DNA of 64,000 nucleotides from Ascidiella aspersa (Eukaryota): the NCBI GenBank assembly GCA_963924565.1, contig OZ004607.1, forward strand, positions 4,154,001 to 4,218,000, given 5' to 3'. A program made the translations under genes and the position numbers. The notes under the pieces are model-generated. The model saw only the letters and a program-made list of their open reading frames with translations, had not been told where the DNA came from and made no database searches. Of this stretch, positions 3,870 to 50,141 are shown in pieces. Each line of letters starts with the position of its first letter. The stretch's first letter is position 1.

Positions 3870-4255
3870 GATTATTTGTAAATGACTTAACTTGGACATT
3901 TGTTGGGTGAGCTGGCATATACAGTCATTGACTTGCACTTAAGCCACAGGTTTTAAATGACTTGACTTGACTTACGTCGTTTGGACAAATGACTTGGGTT
4001 GCATGAAGTGTTTTAATTAGTAATTTGTCATTTTCTTTTATAAGATTGAGCTAATTATCCCAATTTTTGCACATAAAACAGCTTTCTTGCTATACGAGTT
4101 TACCAATCCTAACAATTCTAAGAGTCATTTTTTTATACCACTTATTTGACTTAGAGTTGACTTGCTTTACCTATGACTTGACTGAACTTGACTTGTTATT
4201 TATTCAAAACTTGACAGGAAGAAGTTATTTTACAAATGCCGTGTTTACAACACTG
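3870..4255 (-). mobile_element. Degenerate copy of AAGTC-repeat hAT-type MITE
   Basis: Many GACTT motifs. Terminus gtttacaacactg at 4243-4255. Similar to the copy at 23805-24377. Confidence 0.65.
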
Positions 4256-4928: not shown

Positions 4929-7900
4929 ATGAGTTCCATTCTATACTTTTATCTCATCCTATTTTATTGTGCACTATGCTTCGCTGGAAAAGGGAAAGCA
5001 ACAAGTTAGTACATTTGGGCTATACAAGTAAAATATTGTGTGAAGTGGTAAAATACCTCTGGATCTTGTCAAACAACAAATGGAATGCAAGTATTATATA
5101 ATGTTTTTTTTTCGAATTATTTTTGCCACACAAGTAAAGTAGAATCAAAGGTTAACAAATTTCGTCCATACTATTTTCAAGTGCTGTAAGCCTTCATTTT
5201 TTTCAAATGATTCCCAGTCAAACCATTATTAGAGCAAGTCAACTTCAAGTTGAGTCACTGACATAAAAATAGAAACGTTAAAATAATAAAAATAGTAAAT
5301 TTGTCCATTTATGGACAAATATATCAACTAATAAGAAAACTCAACATAGGCATATGCGCTATGCCAAAAAAATTGATTTTCTTGCAAAAATTGAGATAAA
5401 TAACCAAATCTTAATAAACATGCCGAATTTCAACCCAAATTATTTGACACAATGACTTAAATCCGAGTCATTTGTACGAACACATAAGTCAACTCTCATT
5501 TTGCCCAAAACACTTGAGCCAAGTAAAGTTGTTTAAAAATATTGACCTGAGTTTATTTAATTTACCTAAACCATTCTAACTCTGCCATTTTACTACTATT
5601 TACTGCGGGCTTTGAAGTCAACACACCAGCGGTGCCCCCTCCCTGACCCGCCCCTCTTTTTAAATACCTAACATTTTCGAATTAAACAGCGTTAAAATCC
5701 AAATAGTGACAGCCACAAACATGACAGAGCCGATTAGTGAATAATTTAAAGCAGTGGTTCTCAACCGCCGGTCCGCGTCAACTTTCCTGCCGGTCCGCCA
5801 AATATATTACAATCTTAAATCTCAACTACAAAATGCAAGATGCTGAAGGCTTGTCCATCAAATTTAAAACTTCGCCAGCTTCGTACTTTGCAACATTGTG
5901 ACGTAACATAGAGTTTATGGTCTACTTTGGACTTTATCGTACGAAACAATGCAAGTGTTGTGCCCAACTGTTTAAAAGTCGGCTACAGATCGTTTAAGTC
6001 TTTTTTTAGGAGCAGTTGTATGTGAAAAACTTTAATAGAACCACGTATAACACGTATGACATCAAAGAGACAGCAGCAAATTGCTCATTTAATTTAAGTT
6101 TCTATTCTTTGCTGTTAAGTTGCATACTTTTGTCATATTTGCATTTTGGGTTGATTTTGATTTTTGAAGGTCCACCGGTCCGCAAAATTTGTTTTGAAAT
6201 TTTACCGGTCCGTAAGATAAAAAAAGGTTGAGAACCGCTGCTTTAAAAGCATGTAGTAATTTAAAAGATAAAATAGGTTTCACTTTTCACCTGTAATAAA
6301 CAAAATCATGGACAGGTCTTGAGCCAGTCCGTCGTATGTCCAATGCATGTGCACCAAGTGAAGATTAATTGGGGGCTTTAAAGTCTAAGACATGCACCCT
6401 TACATTGTATGGCTATATTTATGGATCTTTGGAAAATCTCTCGAGGCTGCCATGCTGTCAAATGTAGATTGTTTTATCGACCACTTATAATGCGTGCGCT
6501 TAATCTCGTAAAGGTTGCACCCACAGCTTGACGGCCACTGATCGTTGGCAGCAAGTAAGAAGCCCGGAATACCCACGACCATTTCCCATTCAAACTCAAT
6601 GCTCATGGAGGTAGGCGAGGCTGATATTAATTTCTGAAAAGTTAAAGTTTTTTTGGATGTCAGACGCGAAAAAAAAAATATTACAAAAATAATATTTAAT
6701 TTCGAATAAAGTACCCTTTAAAGTTGCGCAACGTATAACACCGCTTGTGCATATCTATGTTATCGAATATAAAAACTCGTCAACAATAAGAATTATTGCT
6801 ATTCATTTGGTGTTTCTTTTTTGGTGATGGAAAACAATTATGACAGCCGATACAAAAGTTCCAATCAACTTACCCAATAGAAATAATAAGTTGTAAAAAA
6901 TAAATACACTAAAAAACAGGGAGTCGAACCGGAACCGAACCGGACTTTATGAACCGGTTTTGGGTCAATTTTTTCCGAACCGTAACCGAACTTGAACCGG
7001 TTTTTATAAGATTTTAAGGAGCCGAACCGGAACTGAACCGAATTATTTGAAAGTAACTGAACCTTAACCGAACCCGAACCTGTAAATAAAAGCGGTTCGC
7101 TTCTGTATGACGTCACAACTTCTATTTTACAGAGTCAAGTTACGCCATGTTCGAAATTTTATGAAAAAAATATGAATTTTGAATGAAAAAATCGTTTATT
7201 TTTTTATTTTTTAGATATTTTAATAATGAGTTACTGTTTTGTTAATAAATCGGAAACTTAGATTAAATGACTTACAATTTAAAGATTATTCTCTACATTT
7301 ATCGACACACATTTTGAGATTTAACGCAAATTATATTGTATCTGAACCGGAACTTTATGAACCGGTTTTGAAATAACGATGTTCGAACCGGAGCTGAACC
7401 GGAACTTTTAAATTACTCCGAACCGAAACCGGAACTGAACCGGATTACGAAAAAATCCTTGAACCCGAATCGTACCTGAACCGGAAAAGTCAAACGGTTC
7501 GACTCCCTGCTAAAAAATATAGGTTCAACACTAGTGCAAATTTCCGATTCGTCTTTCATCTCCACAGTTTATTTCAAATTCAAGATGCAAAATTCGTGAA
7601 ATTAGTTACGCCAAAGACTCAATAGCGCCACTATCGGCGAAATATCAACATTTACTTTTTCAAATCGCACAGAATTACAGCAGAAGGCGGATTCAGGATT
7701 AAGCTACAGTTTGCAGGCTTCAATTTGGTCAAACCAAACGAGAAGGGCGAATGCACCCGACAGTGGCTGAACATCAGGTTCAGCGACAAAAACGCCGACT
7801 CGCCCTCTTCCTTTTACACCCTGTGTGGAGCCGACAACCCTGGAACCATCGTTTCTCCAGGCAAGTTACTTTAATTGTTTTGCTATTGAAGCGCTCCACT

Positions 7901-11730: not shown

Positions 11731-12279
11731 GACCTAGGGCCCTAGGCTAACTATAACGTTCGTTGTATGCGCCCCGGTCTATGCGCAGAACGCTATATGA
11801 GGCCAAATTCTTGTAGCGAAACGCGTCTCCCGTTTAAACCACAAAACAATCACACACAGTTTGAATTTGAAGGTAGTTGTCTAAATTAAAAAAGAGTCAA
11901 AGATGTTGGCACAGTAAACGGAGGAGAAGATACGTTTCTATACAAAGGGCAATGTGTCATAACAATTAACTCGTGGTACGATTTCAAATACTATGCTCAC
12001 CAACTGTTTGGGGAACCGGGAGAATGTGGAGCAATTAGCGTCAGTTACATTTCCAACGCCTAAATAAAACAAGCAATTTAACAAACAAGGCCTGATTGTG
12101 ACGTCGCACACATAAACATAGCAAGAGTTTAGGCTAATGTAGTTAACAAAGAGCGATATTTACTACGCTCTAACAGTTCATAAGAAGGGCACGGCAAAAC
12201 AAAAGCAGTGTAAATACTACATAAGAAGAAAATGTGCATGTATTGGCGCATGGTTGTTTCTCGACTCGCTCCTCGCTGA

Positions 12280-12432
12280 GCCTGCATAGCTCAGTTGGTA
12301 GAGCGACCGTCCCGGCTTGACCGGAGGTCGTGAGTTCGAACCTCACTGCAGGCCAGTTGTTTTTCTGGCTTGCTCTGCTTGCATCATAGATCGACAGATT
12401 CGGCGAGTCTGCGATGGCTTTTCGGTGTACAT
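12280..12432 (+). mobile_element. tRNA-derived SINE (5' part)
   Basis: tRNA-like head 12280-12354: acceptor stem GCCTGCA/TGCAGGC, A box TAGCTCAGTTGG, B box GTTCGAAC, non-canonical anticodon arm. It runs into a body (gcttgcatcat...acagattcggcg...gatggcttttcggtgtac) shared with the copy at 49365-49558. Confidence 0.8.
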
Positions 12433-13571
12433 AAGAAGACGTTATCATATACACAAAGCCGTCAATGCTGTGCGAACTGACTACTTGTGTCATCGTAGTA
12501 AATTTAGCAAAAGTTACATTTTACACATTGACATATTACCAGGGCTGCAAACTCATATAATACAAACGCAACTCACCAAAAAATATCTTCCGAGTAACAA
12601 ATACTTCCTTTTACACAAAAACAGAATTACAACTTGAACCACGACGGTCAGGCAAAAAAGAAAAACCGCACATTTTAGAAAGTTAGTTCACAACGATTAC
12701 AGCACCAAAGTCTCATAGAAATCGGTAATTACTGGCAAATATTGAAGTCTTGGGCAAATACGACCGAAGTGCTGGCAATTCGATGTAGATTTCACAGTTG
12801 CCTTAAGGTAGGCCTACTGATCAAAGAGTTAGTTTCATGACCCTAAGTTTGTAAGAAAATGCTCACCCACGTCTAATAAAAAAACACCAAAATTATAATT
12901 GGGGAGCCATTCAGACTATAAAACAATAGACTTGAAGATAAATAAAAATCTGTTTTTTTATTGCGTTTTTTAATATATTTCATTTAAATGATCAACAAAA
13001 CTAGTATCTATTCGTGTCGCTGCGGGCCACATATTTAGGGACACGGGTTACAAACCAATCTCCTAAAGGTATATGGAATTTTTAGTGACGTCATAATTAT
13101 TTTAAATTCATGATCTTAGAATTCCTGTGCTACCAATGATAACATGTTCGGCCCTGGTCTAGAATCCTACCACAATTATCCATTCTAGATCAGCGCCCAT
13201 ATTTCTATATAATAATTAATAACGTTGCTAACACGGTCTCTAAAAGTCTTTTATATTGGTGGGTGAGAATTGCGAAAAAGCGCCATTTTTGGCACGTTGT
13301 ATAGACACATTTTAATTTATTGCTTTTTGGACTAACAATCAATTAGTTACAAATGCGCTCTATTTTGTGGCCAGTTTGCAGTGTCGCTTATAGTTGGGAG
13401 CATAGAATACTAATTACATAGAAGGCTAACTGCCTCATTTGCATACTGTTCCGCATGAATGACACTTACTTCGGTCGTGAATGTAAACAAGCTTTGGCAT
13501 CAAAAATTGTTGTATTGTGTATTGGATTTTCATCACTGACGTTCAGAACTAATTTTATCTACTAATTAAGA

Positions 13572-14258
13572 TCAAATTAGGCTTTTACCATCGTAAAGGC
13601 CTCTCCATACAACCACGGTATAGTCGCGGTCACCTACACCTGTGCGGTAACGAATCTGGGAACACACAATAAGCCCTAAAAAGCAACAATACCTAAAGCA
13701 GAAAAATCTATAAAACCATATAGTATTAAGACCAACGACATAATAAAGCCAAATACGCAGTAATATCCAGTACAGCATAATATCAAAATCGTCTGAATAA
13801 GACCTAAATCTGTCGGATTAAGGCTTTAATTCATCAAAAGAAGTCCTGAATTCATCGGAATAAGGCAAAATTAATCGAAAGAAGGCCTAATGGCCAAAAC
13901 AACGCCCGAACCTGTGGGTAGAGGGCGTTTCGGTGACTACGTTTGGGCGACCTAGTCTGACCGGCTCAGTCAGGGAGCCGGTGTTCTTAATGGGTGGAGT
14001 TAGAAAATGGGTTAGTGTTGAAATTATTAGGGGAGTTAGTGATGTACTTAGGGGTGGGGTTTGTTAAAGTGTTGTTTATGCCTGATTATGAGCATTTAGG
14101 TCTTATTCCGACGGATGTCAAACTTATTCCGATTTAGACGGTACTAATACCATTAGGTATCAGTCCTATTTTGGCCTTATTCCGAATTGTGTTTTATTCT
14201 GTGGTTGGTGTTGTTCTTATCTCAGTCTTATGGCTGGAGTCCTAAGAATCTAATTTTG
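13572..14258. mobile_element. Palindromic (foldback) MITE with GAATAAGGC/GCCTTATTC repeats
   Basis: Imperfect terminal IR aaattaggctttta / taagaatctaattt. Internal perfect 15-bp IR gaataagacctaaat (13796) / atttaggtcttattc (14094). Central hairpin accggctc-N7-gagccggt near 13960-13982. Confidence 0.6.
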
Positions 14259-14300
14259 GTTTTGCGCAGTTATTTTGCTACAATTTAAAAATAAACTAAA

Positions 14301-14322
14301 TATATATATATATATATATATA
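14301..14322. repeat. (TA)11 microsatellite
   Basis: Directly visible. Confidence 0.95.
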
Positions 14323-14382
14323 ACAATAATTTTTAAACAAAATTTTAATATACCAACTTTTTATATGGAATAATATTTACAG

Positions 14383-14923
14383 ATGGTTTGATATTGTAAA
14401 TTGTGGAGTAAAGTGTCCAATAAAAGATGGGGCAGATGAAAATTTGGAATGGTTAGAAAATATTTTTATTCAAGAACTAGCTTCTTGGAAGGTTGTTTAT
14501 ATTAATTTGCTTAAATCTATAGCAGGCACTAACAGCTATTTTTAATTAAAGGAAAATATAGAAAAACACTACAAGGGTGAAAACAAAAGACTTATGGCTA
14601 AGCCCACATTGGAAGGATTAGTGTTCACCACTATTCAGAATTAAATAAACTTTATTCTGCCTAATAATCGTCTTTTAAAACAGCTGGATTATGTGTGCTT
14701 ACACATAGAAGTATCCACCACAAAGCAAATATCAAATTGTGTTTTATTTAGAGGCAACTTTACTTGGCTACCGGGCATGAAATCCGGATATTCACCAGGT
14801 GTCATATGGTGTAAAGCATGTAATAGAAAGAAAAATAAAAAAAGCAAACGCGGTAATACAACATATGAGATCAGAAATGTCTGGATAATACTCTGTGAAG
14901 ATCCCCTCCCTCCAAAAAAATAG
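14383..14923 (+). pseudogene. Decayed P-element/THAP9-like transposase, C-terminal part, with intron remnants
   Basis: Exon-like pieces translate as WFDIVNC...DENLEWLENIFIQELASWK (14383-14491), ENIEKHYKGENKRLMAKPTLEGLVFTT (from 14552), LLKQLDYVCL, LLGYRA*NPDIHQVSYG and KRGNTTYEIRNVWIILCEDPLPPKK. This motif order resembles P-superfamily transposases as I recall them. Stops and frameshifts are present, and I could not find the QDxLE catalytic segment. Confidence 0.65.
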
Positions 14924-15199
14924 GCAAATTGAATAATAATATGGTGTTCTGTTATTACTTGATGTAACAAATAAAAAATGAATTGCTGTTAATGGACTGA
15001 AATTAAATAATTTAACTTTTATAATGATCCCTAATGGCCAACTAACAAATGCTAATAATGCATCAACGATAAAACAACAATCAAGACATATGTCATAAAT
15101 AAATAAAATCCAGGGGTTCAACTTCAAGTTGAGATAACATTTATGTGCAAATAAACTGTTATAATAAAGATTTGAATATATTGTTTTTTTCATTTATAT

Positions 15200-15960
15200 T
15201 ATTTCACATGCCTCTTTCTTATTTTGTCGGCATATCTCTTGTAAACCTGTATATTTCTTATTAACCTTTTAAAAACATTTTCACAAAGATTTTTACTAAA
15301 ACTGTATCCCAAAACCCTTGTAACCAGCATAACCATAAAAAACAGTCACCGTTTTGCTCTGTTCATAATCACATTTAGCCATTTCACTCAGAGTTTCATT
15401 GAACTTGCTAAAACCACTGCTAGAAAGTATGTCAATTATTACTTCATTAAAATTAATTTTATCAGCTTTTTTGTTGCATTTTATGCTAAAAGTAAAATAC
15501 ATATAATCAAAAAATATGAGCAGCACTCAGCAGGCATCTATAGATGGCAATTTTCTTTTTCCAACCTGAAAAGAAAGGCAGAATTCGATGTTCTTTCATT
15601 TTCAGGTGCACATAAAACTTGAATAATTGGATGCAAGTCTTTGTACTTTTTGGAGACCTTGTGAATACAGTATCCAGCAACATATATATACTAACATTTC
15701 ACTTTCAGCTTTATTTATAGAATAGGATTGTAAAGCTGTATCTTCTTCTTTGTTTTAGACAATTTCATTGAATAAATGTAAAAGTTGCTTAGCAGCTTCC
15801 AATTATGGTAAATTAAAAAATAACTTCTCAGCATTACAGCAAAATTTCGGATATTGTGATTTGTGATATTATACAACCCGGTTGATAGTTGGCTTGATTA
15901 GTGGTTGAAATTCCACTTCTTGGGGAACGTTAAGCAGTTCGGCTATTACCTCACTTGTCA
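15200..15960 (-). pseudogene. Decayed ORF convergent on the P-like transposase relic (resembles P-transposase C-terminal domain or an accessory gene)
   Basis: Minus-strand frames give NAEKLFF, ESEMLVY-(TA slippage)-VAGYCIHKVSKKY, and LFFMVMLVTRVLGYSFSKNLCENVFK, with several stops and frameshifts. Confidence 0.5.
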
Positions 15961-17299
15961 GTCCAATACTTGACATGTTAAATTATAGTAAACTGACAAA
16001 ATAAACCTGGATATAATTAGAAAAGTTCGTGCATTGACTGAAACGCTGAATAAAATACGCGAAAACGCAAAAATAATACGCAGGTCAACAGACGACATGA
16101 ATACTCTACCTATAATTGCCGCCGAAACCCGTGTTTTTAACAAATCGTGTTAGTGTTACTAATAATTAAAGTTAGAATTCGCAGTCGACAAAATGACAAC
16201 AAAAATACGCTACAGTTACTCATGCGTGACGAGACCCAGTGAGCCTTCAATGTAATTAGTATTCTATGGTTGGAGCAGTGGTCCCCAAGAAAAACATTTT
16301 AGGTTTTTAAGAAGGTGTCAACATTTACTTTGGTATCATTTGGAAAGATAAATTAATAGTTTTAACATATAAACCTTAAAACAGTGATACTAATAGTAAA
16401 AGCATCATTGTGGAATCGGTTGCTAAAATAAAATGCTTTTCGTTTCAAAATCTTTACTATTGGCTTATTTTTCGTAAACTTTAACACATTGATTAAAGCG
16501 GAATGATTAATTTTGTTTGTTCAAGTTATCTGTTGGGAAATGTCGTGTGGTGGTACCGCAGTACATGCCTGCGTACAAGTTCGCCAAGTGTAAAGTTTAG
16601 ATGCATGCTGTTTAGCCTAATTTAAAATAGGAATTGAAGATGGCTCATATCACTCTTGACGCTTTACTTAATTTACATTATATTTTACCAATTCACTTTT
16701 AAAGCGCTTTCAAGGTGACAGTCATAGACCCGTGCTTTGAAACTGTCAAACTGTTAGCATCAACAACAAGGTTATTTGGGGCATGCCTACATAATTATCA
16801 TCTATATGAAAATGCATTTTGTGTTTTTTAATGTTGTTTATTGAACTCCATAATAAAACAGAACCTGTCTTGATTCTTGCAAAAAAATTTTTTACACAGT
16901 CTTCTTATTTTCATCCTAATTGTTTTGACCAATGATTTAAAAACCTGTGGCCATTCCTTCTTGGTGCATCAACATAGCTGTATGGTTCGTTTCTTGTTTG
17001 CCAAACTATGTTTTTTTGGTGTTGAACTTGCACAATATGTGTGATTTGTGTGATAATTGGCCTTCAGTCTTGGCATTGAACATAATTTGTCGCAGATCAA
17101 GTAAATATGGATTACAATAACTAATGTTTCTTAGGGAACTTGTCTGTCAGGCCAGTGAGTTTCAAACAGAACTTATCTGAAGCAAATTTTCCAGCATTCG
17201 TGGTGAGTGCAAAATCTCAGAAAAAACCCTGATCTGACTTGTGTTTATCATAGCTGTGCAACACCTAGGACTTTTAATTGTGTCAAAACAAAACAAAAA

Positions 17300-20200
17300 A
17301 TGATTGAGGAAGCGATTGAAGCATTTAGGACAGGTTTTCCATTGGGTTTGCTTGTAACGTTTCCAGTCATTCTTCTTGTGGTTTCACCCATAACTGTGGT
17401 AGACGCCGCTCATGAATTCACTGTGTACAGAATGCAACAATATGACATGCAAGGAACTCCATATGGTAAATATTGTTGCTGTTGTTATAAGAGATGTTTA
17501 ACAATGTTGAATCTGAGCCAATACCTGATCCCAACTTTTCATATCGAAGTGCATTTAACCCATGATTTGCTATTTAAGTCTAAACTTTCTATTAAAATGA
17601 TTGATAAAATAAAAATCAAAGTTCTGCTTAACAACATAAAACTTATATGTTTTAATTTCATCATTTTTGTTTTCTTGTAAAACTTTTAAAATCAGGTTGA
17701 CTGGCAAGTTATTTAACTGCGTAAATACATATCACATATCCCGAATTGTTATGTAAATACGGCAAGATTAAAAATAACTACAAAATGTTTTGTTAGGTTG
17801 TCGCAGCGCCATTATAAATGCAGAGGCACGCACGCCACAGTCCTCATCCATTGCTCGCAAATGCATTCTCCTGCGTTCCGAAGAACTTACCCACGCACGA
17901 TACCTGGAGGTACTCGATCGTGGTCCTTCCTCGGTTGTCATTCTTCTCCAGGGCAACATGTCGGAGGGTCAAGTGCAGGTAAAACTGTCAACATCTATCT
18001 ATGTTTACGTCTAGGCTGCGTAGTCGGACTTGGAACATAACAGAGTCGGTTTGCTTTACTGGAGTCGGACATGGGACTCAAGTGAAACCACATAAGACTA
18101 TGAGTCTGATGTGCGCTTGTGCAGTACGAAATTTTGAAACTCATAGTGCCGCAATCTGTAAAATGCCAAGGTGAAATAGAATATATGGTTGAATATTTTT
18201 AACCATGTATTGTAGGTGGATAAATTATATGACACCCCTATGAGTAGATTGCTGTATATCCACCTTAACTGAGTTACGTGAATGGGTAAAATACAGTTTG
18301 TACAGTTGGGACTGGAGTCAGACTCTGGGTATTTCTAACCAACTCCGCAAACCTGGTTTACATATAATATCGTTTTGTTTTTCAAATAAACCCATTATTG
18401 TGCATAGAATTTGAATTTTTTTATGATTGGGTCACATAATATATTCTATGGCCATTGCAGTTATTGTAGTTATATGTAAAAAATCCTATCTATTTTTAAT
18501 ATGTTGTGCAACAATAAGCACTGCTAAACAGTTTCTTGTTTGTGGTCTAAATTTTAGCTCTCTAATCCAGCGTTTCTCAACCGGTGCGCCGCGGCGCACG
18601 CGCACTGGTGCGCCATGGAAGGCTGCTAGGTGCGCCGCGAGAAAAAAAAAACATGTCGAAATCAGTCCAAAACTAATCGGAATAAGACTTTAATGGACAA
18701 AATAACGTTTTTAGTCTCAAAGGCTGGAAGTCTCTTTAAAGATATGCAACTATAAAACCCATATAAAAAAAAATGCAGGCCATTCAAGACAAATATAAGT
18801 ATATACACTTCAAAAATTTCGCGCTCGCTTCGCTTGTAAGGTGCGCTGCCACGTTTTCATACGGTTCGCCCCTAAGTAAAAAAGGTTAAGAAACACTGAC
18901 TCTAATCTAATAAATTTAAATTTTGGTTCCATCACTGTCTTGTCATGAGAATTGTTTTTTATTCATGGCTAGAAAAGAGTAGCCCCAAGGTTATGTTTTA
19001 GAGAAAAAAAATCTTTGTTGCATACAGTCAAGTAGAACTAAAATTATAGAAGAGTGATTAAATATGCAGTAGGCTGCTAAAATACCACATGCATTTATTC
19101 TACATATCAAAAGATGTGTTTTAAAAATTGTATAAATGAAACAACCAGGATTGAGTTAAATTTTTGTAAACAGAGCAGTAAAAACTAAAAACGCATTGCT
19201 CTAGAAGCAAATTTCACTCAACAATTAAATGTTGTTTTATACACAATTTGTACTGCTACACCCCACATAATTACCAATGCCATTAGGAAAATGATTAAAA
19301 AACTAAGAAGAAAGAAAAGAGGTACTGGGACAAAAAGACTGATACATCTAAAAAGAGACTACCGCAAAATTTTCTGTTAATCCATATTCAATTTTCCACT
19401 CTTATCACAAATAATGTGGGCTGCCAGGGAATGGATCATGTTTCAGGATGTCAAACATTAATCTTTGACATGTATAACTTAATGTTGCTTGAAGTTAGCC
19501 ATATTTTACTTTTAAATGCATATATAAAAATGTAATATTCTAATATATTGTAGGTAGGGCCACTTTTTAACCTTTGGAAAAAAAATAGCACAGTACTCCT
19601 AGTATATATTTGGTTCAAGTCTTGGTATATTATATTTTGTAGAAGTTTGTTGCCCTTGAAGGAGAGCTACTTCGAATAGAATCAAACATCCCGGTTTACT
19701 TTACATTTGAAAATGAAGAAATCAAAGACATTTACGACCGGGTATGTTGTTAAACCTGGCTATTCACATTTGCAACACCAATTTACCCTAACTTTTCTTC
19801 TCTTCTAATTTTTTTGTTTTGATAAAGGTTTATTTTAATCATGATATGTTACCTTCTTAATTAAATTGAAGATCAAATACAGGAATGGCATATGTATTGT
19901 CCCCTGTTTAAACCACCAGTGTTGTGAACAAGTCATTTTGAAATGACTCAAGTTTCATTTGGGTCATTTGTAAAATAATAAAGATCAAAAGTCTTTTCGA
20001 ATAAATAACAATTCAAGTCATAATTAGAGCAAGTCAATCTAAACTTTAAATTGTTAAAATGGGTAAATTTTTTTTATATGGGAATATTTCAACTCAAAAA
20101 CAGTCTGCACCAATCTAGTCATGTTAAGTGCAAAAATTAAGATAAATTACTCAAAACTGAAAACACTTAATTTCAACCCAAGCCACTTGACGCAATGACG

Positions 20201-23200: not shown

Positions 23201-26200
23201 ATTAATTAAACGAATTCTCAATAAAGTTTACTGTATATAACTTGTAACGCTTATAATGTTGGTTTTTCATTTTACTTTTAAATGGCTTTTAGGTTGTATT
23301 CCTTTAATTTTTTGGTAAAGGGGTCTGCCAAATTAAATTCTTTGAAAAAGAGAGAAAACCACTCCTCCAAAAATACTTCCTGTTTAGACCTATTAGTTTA
23401 TTTTAGGTTGGCAATATATCACAATTAAATTTATGTATTTGGGGTGCTCTACCAAATTTCTTATAAACTTTATAATTTAACTTTTTTTGAGGGTATTAAC
23501 TTTCTTTCGCATATTTATTGAGGTTTGAACATGTTTTTCGTTGTATCAATTGTAGTTTTAATAAACATTTTAATATTTAGTGGTTTGTAAGAATTTTGGT
23601 CAATGGAAAAGTTAAAGGGGTAGAATATAGAGAAAATAAGGTTAAGTAGCAGTGCTCAACAACAATCTTCTTTATGCAGGATGCAATGAGAAGATCAATC
23701 ATGGACACAAAGAAAACAGTCAACGTTGATACGCTGACGAGAAATATCCGAATCATCGCCGAATCCATCCTCGGATACCTATACAATGTCACTGATGTAT
23801 GTTGCAGTGTTGTAAACAAGTCATTTTGAAATAACTTCAGTCCCAGTCAAGTCATTCGTAAAATAACTTAAGTCCAAGTCAAGTCTTATTGAATAAATAA
23901 CAAGTCAAGTCCCAGTCCAAGTCACCGGTTGCCCAAGTCAAGTCATAATTAGAGCAAGTCAACTTCAAGTCCAGCTAATAAGACTTTAAATTATGAAAAC
24001 CGGCAAACTCCTCCGATTATTATGAGCAAAGTAAAAAATAACACAATAGCAACATATTACAAGCAAATTCTTTTATGTGCAAAGATTGGGATAAATAACG
24101 CAATTTTATAATTAATTGCGTAATTAAAACAATTTATTTTAACCCAAGTCATTTGCCCAAATGACTTAAGTCAAGTCAAGTCTTTTTGCCCAAAAGACTT
24201 AAGTCAAGTCAAGTATTTTTGCCCAAAAGACTTAAGTCAAGTCAAGTATTTTTGCCCAAAAGACTTAAGTCAAGTCAAGTCATTTTGCCCAAAAGACTTA
24301 AGTCTAGTCAAGTCGTTTAAAAACAGTTACTTAAGTGCACTTAAGGTAAGTCATTGACTTAAGCCATTACAACACTGGTATGTTGTTTATAGATTTTAAG
24401 ACACTGTAATTTTTCTAAAAGTTATTAGGGGTAACAATGGTAACATGTTAGTTGGCTTTGAATTTTCATTTTGACACCAACTTATTATCAATATAGTAAT
24501 GCTATGTCAGAAAATCTTTACAGTAGGCTTATTTCCGTATGTATTACAACGCTTAACTTTGTCTAAGCTTGGTGTGTAAAATAACGATTTTAACAGGAGA
24601 GCACCATGAGTCTATCAAGCGGAGATTACGCAATTCACAAAGACCACATACAAGCCTGGCTGAATTTCCTGGCAGAGCAACCCAGGCCTGCACAGGTGAG
24701 TTCACTTCCTCCCACATAATATCACAGCACAGCTGTGCTATGTTAGCCATCAACACCTTAACCTTTCTGTGTCGCTTTCCCAGCCTTAACTTTCTTGGAA
24801 CAGAATACTTTGGTGGCTTCTGTGCGTTGAATCTTGTGGTTGATTTAATGCAAATGTTTTTTTTGTATGTAAAAATCAATAAAACTAATGTTGTTGTGAA
24901 GTCTTTAATATTTAAAAAAAAATTGTTTTTCCAAAAATTTTACCCAAAAATTTATAAAAGTTTAACCCAGAACCTAGGTACTGGAGTTTGTCACAACTGT
25001 ACTACCCCAAGTCTAACTGTTATGTGTATTATCCCTTAAACTTGTTTCTGCATATCTTTATAGTTTTAGCGTTATTGTTTTGAATATTTTTACAAATTAC
25101 CTTAAAATGTTTGGCTAAATTTGGCTGGTGTTATTAAAAAATAGATTTCAAAACAAAAACATTAAACCAATGAAAACTAAATGTTATTATATTTTATTTT
25201 AAAACAGTCAAAAAGTAGAATGATTCACCTGGTAAAAATACTGGTTGCCAGGAAACAACTAAAAAAATAAAATGAACGTCTTACTTTCCAAAAATGATCA
25301 TAGATCATTTAAATCAATAAAGTCTTGCCGGCAAAAATCACTTTGATGTGGTTAAATGTATTTTGACATTTTATTATTTTTCCTGGGCAGATTATGTCTG
25401 AAGATCATCCAGTTGTTTCAGCCTTGGATGTAGCATTACAAAGACATGTGAAACTGGCCAAGAAAATCAAATTGAAAGCTGACAAAAGGTGGGATTTTCA
25501 TTAGAAGATATCACTAATCAGATTCTGACCAACATAAAGCTGCTGCATTTGTGTTAAATGTTTAAACGGAGAACATAGAATTACATCTATACTTGTTTTT
25601 TTTAATAAAAATAAACTTTTGCTGTTTTTAACCCTTTAAATTTTGGGGCTCCCAAACTGTTTTTTATTATGTTGGTATTCATTTTTTAGAGATCCTGACT
25701 TTCTATTTTATGATGTCATGTCTGCGACTATGAGTGCTTCAATTGTCAGATCTGCGGTGTTTGATCTCTATGTGACTGGATTTGTCGCATCTTACCTTGG
25801 TCTCATCTACCTGTTTGTATTGGTAAGTTTAAAGTAAAAATGAAAAGGTTGCTTACTCATATTGCGAAAAAAGTATGTTATATGATGCAGATGTAAAATT
25901 ATAAATCAGCCATTTAAGTGAAGCGCAAGGCTACAGCTAAACTTGATCTTTCAACAAAACCATCATGTTTGGTTTTTAATTAAATTTTATTTAGTCCCAA
26001 TCGTTACTTTGAAGCTTTGGGCTTGGATTGACTGAAAATGTTTCTCCTTTTAGTTTTTCATTTCTTAAATACAACGCAACTGTAAAATGTGTATTTGTGC
26101 ACAAGTTTTGATGCACTAATAAACATAATTTTCAGTATTAACTGTTGGGTTATCTCGCACTATGACTGTTTTGAACAGATCACACTTTTTTAAGGTGTAC

Positions 26201-49364: not shown

Positions 49365-49558
49365 AGTTTATTGCAACTGTGATCTAGCCCCTTGGAAGCT
49401 GCTTTTTGACCAACGATTACGGCTTCCGTATCATTAGTACACCGAAAAGCCATCGCCGAATCTGTTGATCAATGATGCAAGCAAGGCAGGCTACAAAAAC
49501 AAACTCAATACCTCCGGCCATACCGGGACCAACGCTCTATCAACTGAGCTATACAGGC
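49365..49558 (-). mobile_element. tRNA-derived SINE (near full length, T-arm partly deleted)
   Basis: Reverse complement starts GCCTGTATAGCTCAGTTGATAGAGCG...CCCGG...CCGGAGGT. It shares its body with 12280-12432 and its tail with 38360-38430. Confidence 0.82.
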
Positions 49559-50141
49559 TGAAATGTGAGCAAGTTGAGAAACTTTCATTGCTGGAAATAA
49601 CGTAAAGCTCAAACAACCAGGCTCCATCTGTAACTTGTCGTGTATTTTAAGCAAGTCATGCACGAGTGGAAAAAAACACAAGCGCCACACACCAACTACG
49701 TCATAAACAGAGGTTGTGACGTCACACAGAGTAAACGGTTTCGCGTTTTGGAGTCGGGTTTCTCTGGAGGGGGGTTTCCCGGCGTTTGTTCCGATCTGGT
49801 GACTTATTTTTACCGTTTTTTTCTTTACTTAAAAAATAACAAAAAAGGAGAAAGGTAGAAAACCCCTAAACCAGCGGGGCTGCAAAAAGAACAATGAAAA
49901 AAGTGAAAAAAAAATACTGGAATCATCTCAGAGAAGGGGGAGACGTGCTACTAAATGATGGGGAGGGGTTCAGTGGGTGAAGTTTTTTTAACCTCGTTTT
50001 TTGGGGGGGACTTAAAGCAGTGGGGTTTTCCCTAAAGCGGAGCGGTGGGAAAGATACGTCACCGGTTAAGGAAAATTGTTCGGCAAGAACAGAGCGAATA
50101 CGAATGCGAGCATCTTAATTCTTAATGTATATGATCTATAA

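Follow-up and report, generated by a model that had tools for sequence, protein, structure and literature searches.

The window (the whole stretch of 64,000 nucleotides from Ascidiella aspersa that was analysed) contains a dead, internally deleted DNA transposon of the P superfamily, which spans 2,868 bp (13401-16268) between terminal inverted repeats of 32 bp. These repeats place the borders of the element well outside the extent originally predicted (14383-15960), which was too small. Inside lie the remnants of two convergent genes, a transposase on the plus strand and a second gene facing it on the minus strand, behind a nested insertion:

13393..13400, unstranded: left copy of the target-site duplication, longer than the right one by a single G
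13401..13432, plus strand: left terminal inverted repeat of 32 bp, starting CATAG, 94% complementary to 16237-16268
13658..14242, unstranded: nested non-coding MITE-like insertion with GG ends, flanked by a 9-bp duplication (13649-13657 and about 14243-14251)
14383..14491, plus strand: predicted exon of the transposase remnant, from WFDIVN to LEWLENIF..W, aligning to residues 370-394 of the transposase P0151
14552..14715, plus strand: predicted exon of the transposase remnant with TLEGLVFT; in sister copies the catalytic-Glu stretch follows downstream, deleted here
14752..14923, plus strand: last exon of the transposase, frameshifted, with NPDIHQ, GNTTYE and EDPLPPKK before the stop; open in the sister copy L002
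15199..15976, minus strand: convergent second gene, decayed by several frameshifts and stops and an internal deletion of about 105 bp
15993, minus strand: pile-up of RNA molecule ends (18 molecules, depth 45), 17 nt upstream of the second-gene ATG
16237..16268, minus strand: right terminal inverted repeat, pairing with 13401-13432
16269..16275, unstranded: right copy of the target-site duplication, 7 bp

The nested insertion is presumably Mutator-like, to judge from the length of its 9-bp duplication; similar DNA is found at unrelated loci, and RNA covers both of its strands, with loose read ends at its borders (13657/13658 and 14242). The RNA data, which concern transcripts and not protein, come from one stranded run (X6) with the same species label, about 6% of which was read and compared with the window and with a copy of another P family (L025, described below). 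The strand rule for this run was fixed by the nicalin gene, which starts about 1 kb to the right of the element (17300-17978 and beyond) and was identified by PDB matches (E-values of 2.5e-13 and 4e-6), its first intron (17465-17796) being backed by RNA. Elsewhere in the window, a short tRNA-like repeat, likely a SINE, lies in opposite orientations at 12256-12406 and 49453-49582, and 33-bp tandem repeats at 24119-24351 are related to dispersed repeats at 3955, 5426, 19917, 43024 and 47993.

Ends, target duplications and short remnants

The genome searched was the 308.6-Mb assembly that contains the window. The right part of the element has 118 matches there, the best copies being 91-95% identical, and its terminal 18-mer has 81 exact occurrences, against none for the reversed control, so that the region is more than a chance resemblance. 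Most, but not all, of these 81 matches were retrieved, and 33 end pairs were picked by hand, pairings that joined unrelated ends being left out. The 7-bp flanks are identical at 21 of these pairs and carry one mismatch at 7 and two at 5 (at most one mismatch in 28/33); when 6-bp or 8-bp flanks were compared, none of the 33 pairs had fewer than three mismatches. The target consensus derived from the 7-bp flanks of the window's family is the palindrome GTT-N-AAC, and the family ends are CA..TG. Terminal inverted repeats combined with a 7-bp target duplication, a P-superfamily feature, are present both in this family and in family B (see below).

Eleven of the 33 end pairs are remnants of 32-46 bp, in which two terminal-repeat stubs (about 14-20 nt each) lie between 7-bp duplications (L044, L050, L051, L055, L057, L061, L069, L071, L075, L078 and L080). 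One stub is 18 nt long owing to the design of the search, and the other measures mostly 14-16 nt; additional copies of two remnants (three of one, one of another) are tandem duplicates. P elements leave two-stub footprints of this kind in vivo. Such remnants are expected from the repair of breaks about 17 nt inside the ends, which is where the fly P transposase is described as cleaving (PMC7776569). The eleven short remnants are therefore likely to be excision footprints of the window's family; they are consistent with P-type staggered cutting, a fit that is not equivalent to a cleavage assay.

All examined copies of the family are decayed, and the unpaired terminal repeats of this assembly led to remnants and deleted copies only, with no autonomous master among them; the window copy would have spread as a passenger, moved by an autonomous partner. 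Among 20 large copies retrieved, 14 hold both genes and 6 the second gene alone. The proposed co-occurrence of the two genes, tail-to-tail between shared inverted repeats, was found in all 14 copies that hold both. At one further locus (L098; G000:C8:15326500-15336400), a copy of a single-gene P family sits between the ends of a window-family copy.

The two convergent genes

The motifs on which the original prediction was built are all present. On the plus strand these are WFDIVN (14384-14401), LEWLENIF (14444-14467), TLEGLVFT (14606-14629), NPDIHQ (14781-14798, in a different frame), GNTTYE (14852-14869) and EDPLPPKK with its stop (14897-14923), and on the minus strand ESEMLVY (15706-15686), VAGYCIHKVSKK (15681-15646) and RVLGYSF (15318-15298), in a reading frame that begins at the ATG at 15976 and stops near 15199. 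The convergent stops are separated by about 275 bp, close to the 280 bp predicted. The window copy holds just the final third of the transposase, its introns being predicted from splice-like sites in the sequence. Against home-made profiles of relatives, its plus-strand gene scores 7.9 bits and its minus-strand gene 1-2.5 bits, the latter at background level, and a Pfam search of eight window fragments returned nothing relevant. Since this copy is too decayed to score well, the homologies of both genes rest on sister copies and homologs, through which the predicted P transposase identity of the first gene and P-family homology of the second do hold.

Neither the THAP domain nor any of the three catalytic residues is left in the window copy; sister copies keep them in part. 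Sister L082 possesses a THAP-like start (presumed, as is that of L025, from a pattern read by eye), an HTH exon (PF12017, E-value of 0.002, 18.8 bits against a cut-off of 23; 34 bits with our own profile) and the first catalytic Asp motif, LTLDEMK, while L081 and L094 keep the catalytic-Glu motif SQD[VI]LEAFFG that the window copy has deleted. The exon at 14383-14491 is predicted from its alignment to cover the end of the GTP-binding insertion and the return to RNase H. Matches above cut-off were obtained for PF21788 and PF21789 in L024 and for PF21787 and PF21788 in L102 and in P0151, a P transposase of 523 residues without C-terminal domain; the RNase H core with its GTP-binding insertion is present in the lineage, and the window's family retains sub-threshold pieces of it. 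The last exon, which in L002 matches profile positions 463-519, ends in a short tail that resembles those of the tail-less P0151 and of metagenome loci. The resemblance to P0151 argues that the early stop of the transposase is its natural end and not damage.

The second gene of the window's family is recognizable in sister copies, where it reaches 16-22 bits at best against the family profile, with hhalign probabilities of 60-63%. Pieces of two sisters, L013 and L019, match the second-gene profile in the correct order (E-values of 7e-5 and 8e-5), and the second gene of L094 scores 21.8 bits over profile positions 5-158. These similarities suggest a distant member of a family of second genes that resemble the P tail. 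Full-length homologs are proteins of 320-400 residues that stand alone in protein collections, none of the ten clusters examined being named; their features are an acidic start, a single C2H2 finger (none was seen in the window's family), a helical domain and, opening with a Y..G[YR] helix, a C-terminal domain. The alignment of second proteins (A2) comprises three seeds and 12 further hits carrying the domain; the results of a PDB sequence search, an Atlas search and most of 150 listed representatives were set aside, their matches being driven by the zinc finger. In a codon test for selection, pN/pS in the second gene of the window's family came to 0.5-1.0, compared with 0.74 among private changes. 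The least-deleted sister copy has this gene interrupted by an insertion (L082:840-2250), which we take to be retroelement-like from its reverse transcriptase end and GIY-YIG-like motifs, and short pieces of the second gene that have no terminal repeat in their vicinity (L041-L043) were read as old debris.

Structure prediction was applied to P0001, the second protein of family C (AlphaFold2, pLDDT 82). The best match of the model, ranked first among 48,161 chains, is residues 617-734 of 6p5a_B (Z 8.0, rmsd 2.6, 107 of 118 residues; next-best match Z 6.8), although a Z of 8.0 can arise by chance for helical proteins and the modelled protein belongs to another family than the window's. A Foldseek search of the same model against the PDB gave no match at E<=0.001. 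At the sequence level, the second-gene profile aligns by hhalign with the fused tail of the single-gene transposase L040 (E-value of 4e-5, probability 70%), and PF12596 is matched by one of 18 second-gene members (E-value of 0.002). Structure match and sequence evidence agree independently, and the fold predicted for the second protein resembles the C-terminal domain of the fly P transposase.

Over 14840-15987, which takes in the second gene, minus-strand RNA reaches a depth of 34-112, against 1-5 for the plus strand, and over the transposase region (14348-14675) the depth is 0-1.3. With a similarity mostly of 90-95% and a segment that the window copy lacks, the minus-strand reads must come from sister copies. 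The 5' ends piling up at 15993 fall on an acceptor-like CAG within TTTTGTCAG (minus strand) and could mark where transcription starts, or else reflect an exon further upstream or the trans-splicing of a leader. No RNA joint connects the first gene with the second in run X6, either at L025 or in the window.

Recurrence of the layout in other P families

A genome search with PF21789 produced 48 matches in two score classes, from which 30 stretches were retrieved (two overlapping earlier ones). Nineteen distinct loci carry a transposase without tail; they comprise families B, C, D and E and the single locus L122. A second gene lies downstream on the opposite strand at 14 of the 19 and on the same strand at none, and no second-gene match was obtained at the remaining five (L029, L034, L037, L038 and L122). 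The second-gene profile included proteins of families B, C and D, so that there is some circularity in the scores of these families, though none in position or strand. The convergent layout is thus shared by the window's family and four other P families of this genome, whose second proteins are 30-38% identical, and the full-length tail-less transposases stop 46-54 residues after the catalytic Glu. L122 (4833-7340), the one locus seen of yet another tail-less P family, has a THAP-like start and no detected second gene, and is possibly a deleted copy or an exception to the layout.

The pattern extends to metagenomes, in which 17 loci were confirmed, 16 of them with the Glu motif. Thirteen of these 16 transposases stop 51-76 residues after the motif, two stop earlier and one runs off its contig; none continues into a tail domain. 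A facing gene is present on each of the three contigs with more than 1.4 kb of downstream sequence (E-values of 3e-23 to 1e-8), the other 14 ending within about 800 bp. Sixteen of the 17 loci derive from one archive series, so that this support may reflect few hosts.

The reverse situation is met in a single-gene THAP9-like family of the same genome (L040 and seven further copies). In seven of the eight copies the tail domain follows RNase H on the same strand (about 21 bits, E-values of about 2e-6), the eighth (L035) being a fragment without tail match, and a facing gene is found at none of the eight. Across the 19 tail-less and eight single-gene loci, the two states are therefore complementary: fused tail or facing gene, never both.

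Family B provides the best-preserved examples. Its copies are 6.1 kb long, about 99% alike and bounded by imperfect terminal repeats (L025, L027 and L028), with 7-bp duplications at the five copies of which both ends were read, and the second genes of L025 and L028 are open over 349 codons from stop to stop. At the near-intact copy L025 (531-6640; G000:C1, near 22,716,000-22,722,000), transposase RNA is found on the coding strand with five GT-AG introns; second-gene RNA has a depth of 1-3, being confined to the opposite strand only over 5322-5749 and present on both strands nearer the start of the gene. Nine reads of the RNA run span the empty site of this insertion, which at least one of that individual's chromosomes must therefore lack. 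Near-intact, transcribed and with an empty-site allele, the copies of family B suit experiments better than the window copy does.

Interpretation and comparison with known systems

We consider it probable that the window element is a dead P copy from a split lineage, in which a short transposase and a convergent tail-like gene are encoded apart and their products likely assemble as one enzyme. The ends of the element, its 7-bp duplications, the convergent arrangement of both genes in five families, transcription from opposite strands and the P domains of the first gene are established; the joint function of the two proteins is what we infer. The central proposal of the original prediction, that the missing C-terminal region exists as a separate convergent gene, draws support from the layout, from the profiles of sister copies and from the fold model of P0001. 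In such a system, the first protein would bind the element ends through THAP and HTH and would cut and join through RNase H with GTP, the cuts being staggered about 15-18 nt inside each end, while the second would make in trans the contacts to target DNA and to the long single-stranded end that the tail provides in the fly; at the ends of the element, the two would come together as a single functional enzyme. A flexible, disordered linker connects the fly C-terminal domain with RNase H (PMC7776569), so that little should be lost by severing this linker, provided that the free domain is otherwise recruited; the extra zinc finger and helical domain may, as a guess, be candidates for this recruitment. 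A complex prediction between P0151 (residues 85-523) and the second protein of L108 (residues 80-412) gave a score of 0.00, for proteins taken from different elements and folded without alignments or DNA.

The main rival, which we regard as unlikely, is that the second gene is a homolog of the tail domain kept as a regulator (a repressor or targeting factor), the short transposase working alone. Such a role would suit the abundance of second-gene RNA in the window's family next to a nearly silent transposase remnant, the antisense course of this RNA across the last transposase exon, and the C2H2 finger and helical domain that most homologs add and the fly tail lacks. The low RNA level of the remnant is, however, little informative, since its 5' exons have been lost. 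Moreover, the fly domain is described as lying between RNase H and the partner subunit's GTP-binding domain and as touching the DNA of both end and target at many points within the strand-transfer complex (PMC7776569), and the complementary distribution of fused tails and facing genes fits a needed part. It is considerably less probable that the minus-strand gene of the window's family is unrelated to the P tail, as cargo or a chance motif match: Pfam is silent on the window fragments and the profile scores are weak, but two separate sister pieces match the profile in order, L094 does so over a long stretch, and the gene has the same position and strand as the second genes of the other families.

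That the layout is an accident, namely an inverted 3' end of one ordinary P gene amplified in dead non-autonomous copies only, is the least credible alternative and very improbable. The decay of every examined copy of the window's family would agree with it. A local inversion, a possibility which the original prediction had itself raised, is nevertheless contradicted by the recurrence of the layout in divergent families and on unrelated metagenome contigs, by the open frames of family B, by the similar short tail of the first gene at unrelated loci, and by a second gene equipped with an ATG and RNA of its own and with additional N-terminal domains; with intact two-gene elements and recent insertions in existence, this alternative is largely refuted.

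The P transposase is a textbook single-chain enzyme. A natural split at the boundary between RNase H and the C-terminal domain would mean that this domain can be a free module, its role being directly testable; it would also place P among the two-component DNA transposons, account for an unnamed family of zinc-finger proteins as components of transposons and provide a two-part transposase that can be switched. More tentatively, it is possible that these elements form a widespread and still mobile P clade with an obligate two-subunit transposase, consisting of a catalytic core and a zinc-finger-bearing C-terminal-domain protein that would be needed for cutting or target capture; with a promoter of its own for the second gene and RNAs that overlap in antisense, such an element could tune or gate its transposition.

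The literature search met no description of a two-gene P element, and the part of the Repbase overview available to us names P without such a two-gene subgroup (PMC4455052); Repbase entries and most subscription papers were outside the scope of this search, so that a prior annotation of such a clade is quite possible. In its presumed working, the system resembles a P element: the terminal repeats, the target duplications and the RNase H core of the P superfamily are present, and a THAP domain and HTH are probable, but the canonical P/THAP9 feature of a C-terminal domain within the RNase H polypeptide is absent from the tail-less lineage. Kolobok, with its Kol0 and KolX proteins, is likewise a DDE transposon with a second protein, but has RR..YY ends and, in KolX, a zinc-binding P2X7 ballast fold (PMC9587614). 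An identity with Kolobok was rejected, given this different fold, the best match of our second protein to the P tail, and CA..TG ends with 7-bp duplications. Galileo and 1360/Hoppel share the 7-bp target duplications and a P-superfamily transposase and are described as intron-less (PMC3698922), whereas the lineage described here has introns and two genes. The single-gene THAP9-like family of the same genome shares the Pfam core (PF12017, PF21787, PF21788 and PF21789), and its fused tail (PF22824) matches the second-gene profile, but it consists of one long frame with 266 residues from Glu to stop in open copies. The fly P element (PDB 6P5A) is alike in its split RNase H with GTP-binding insertion, probably in its THAP and HTH, in its helical C-terminal domain (as judged from the model match), in inverted repeats of about 31-32 bp and in its introns, and the remnants found here fit its staggered cut of roughly 17 nt (PMC7776569). 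It differs in its target duplication (8 bp, against 7 bp here) and in the C-terminal domain, which the present lineage encodes apart, in the convergent gene, and which there mostly comes together with a C2H2 finger and a helical domain as additions.
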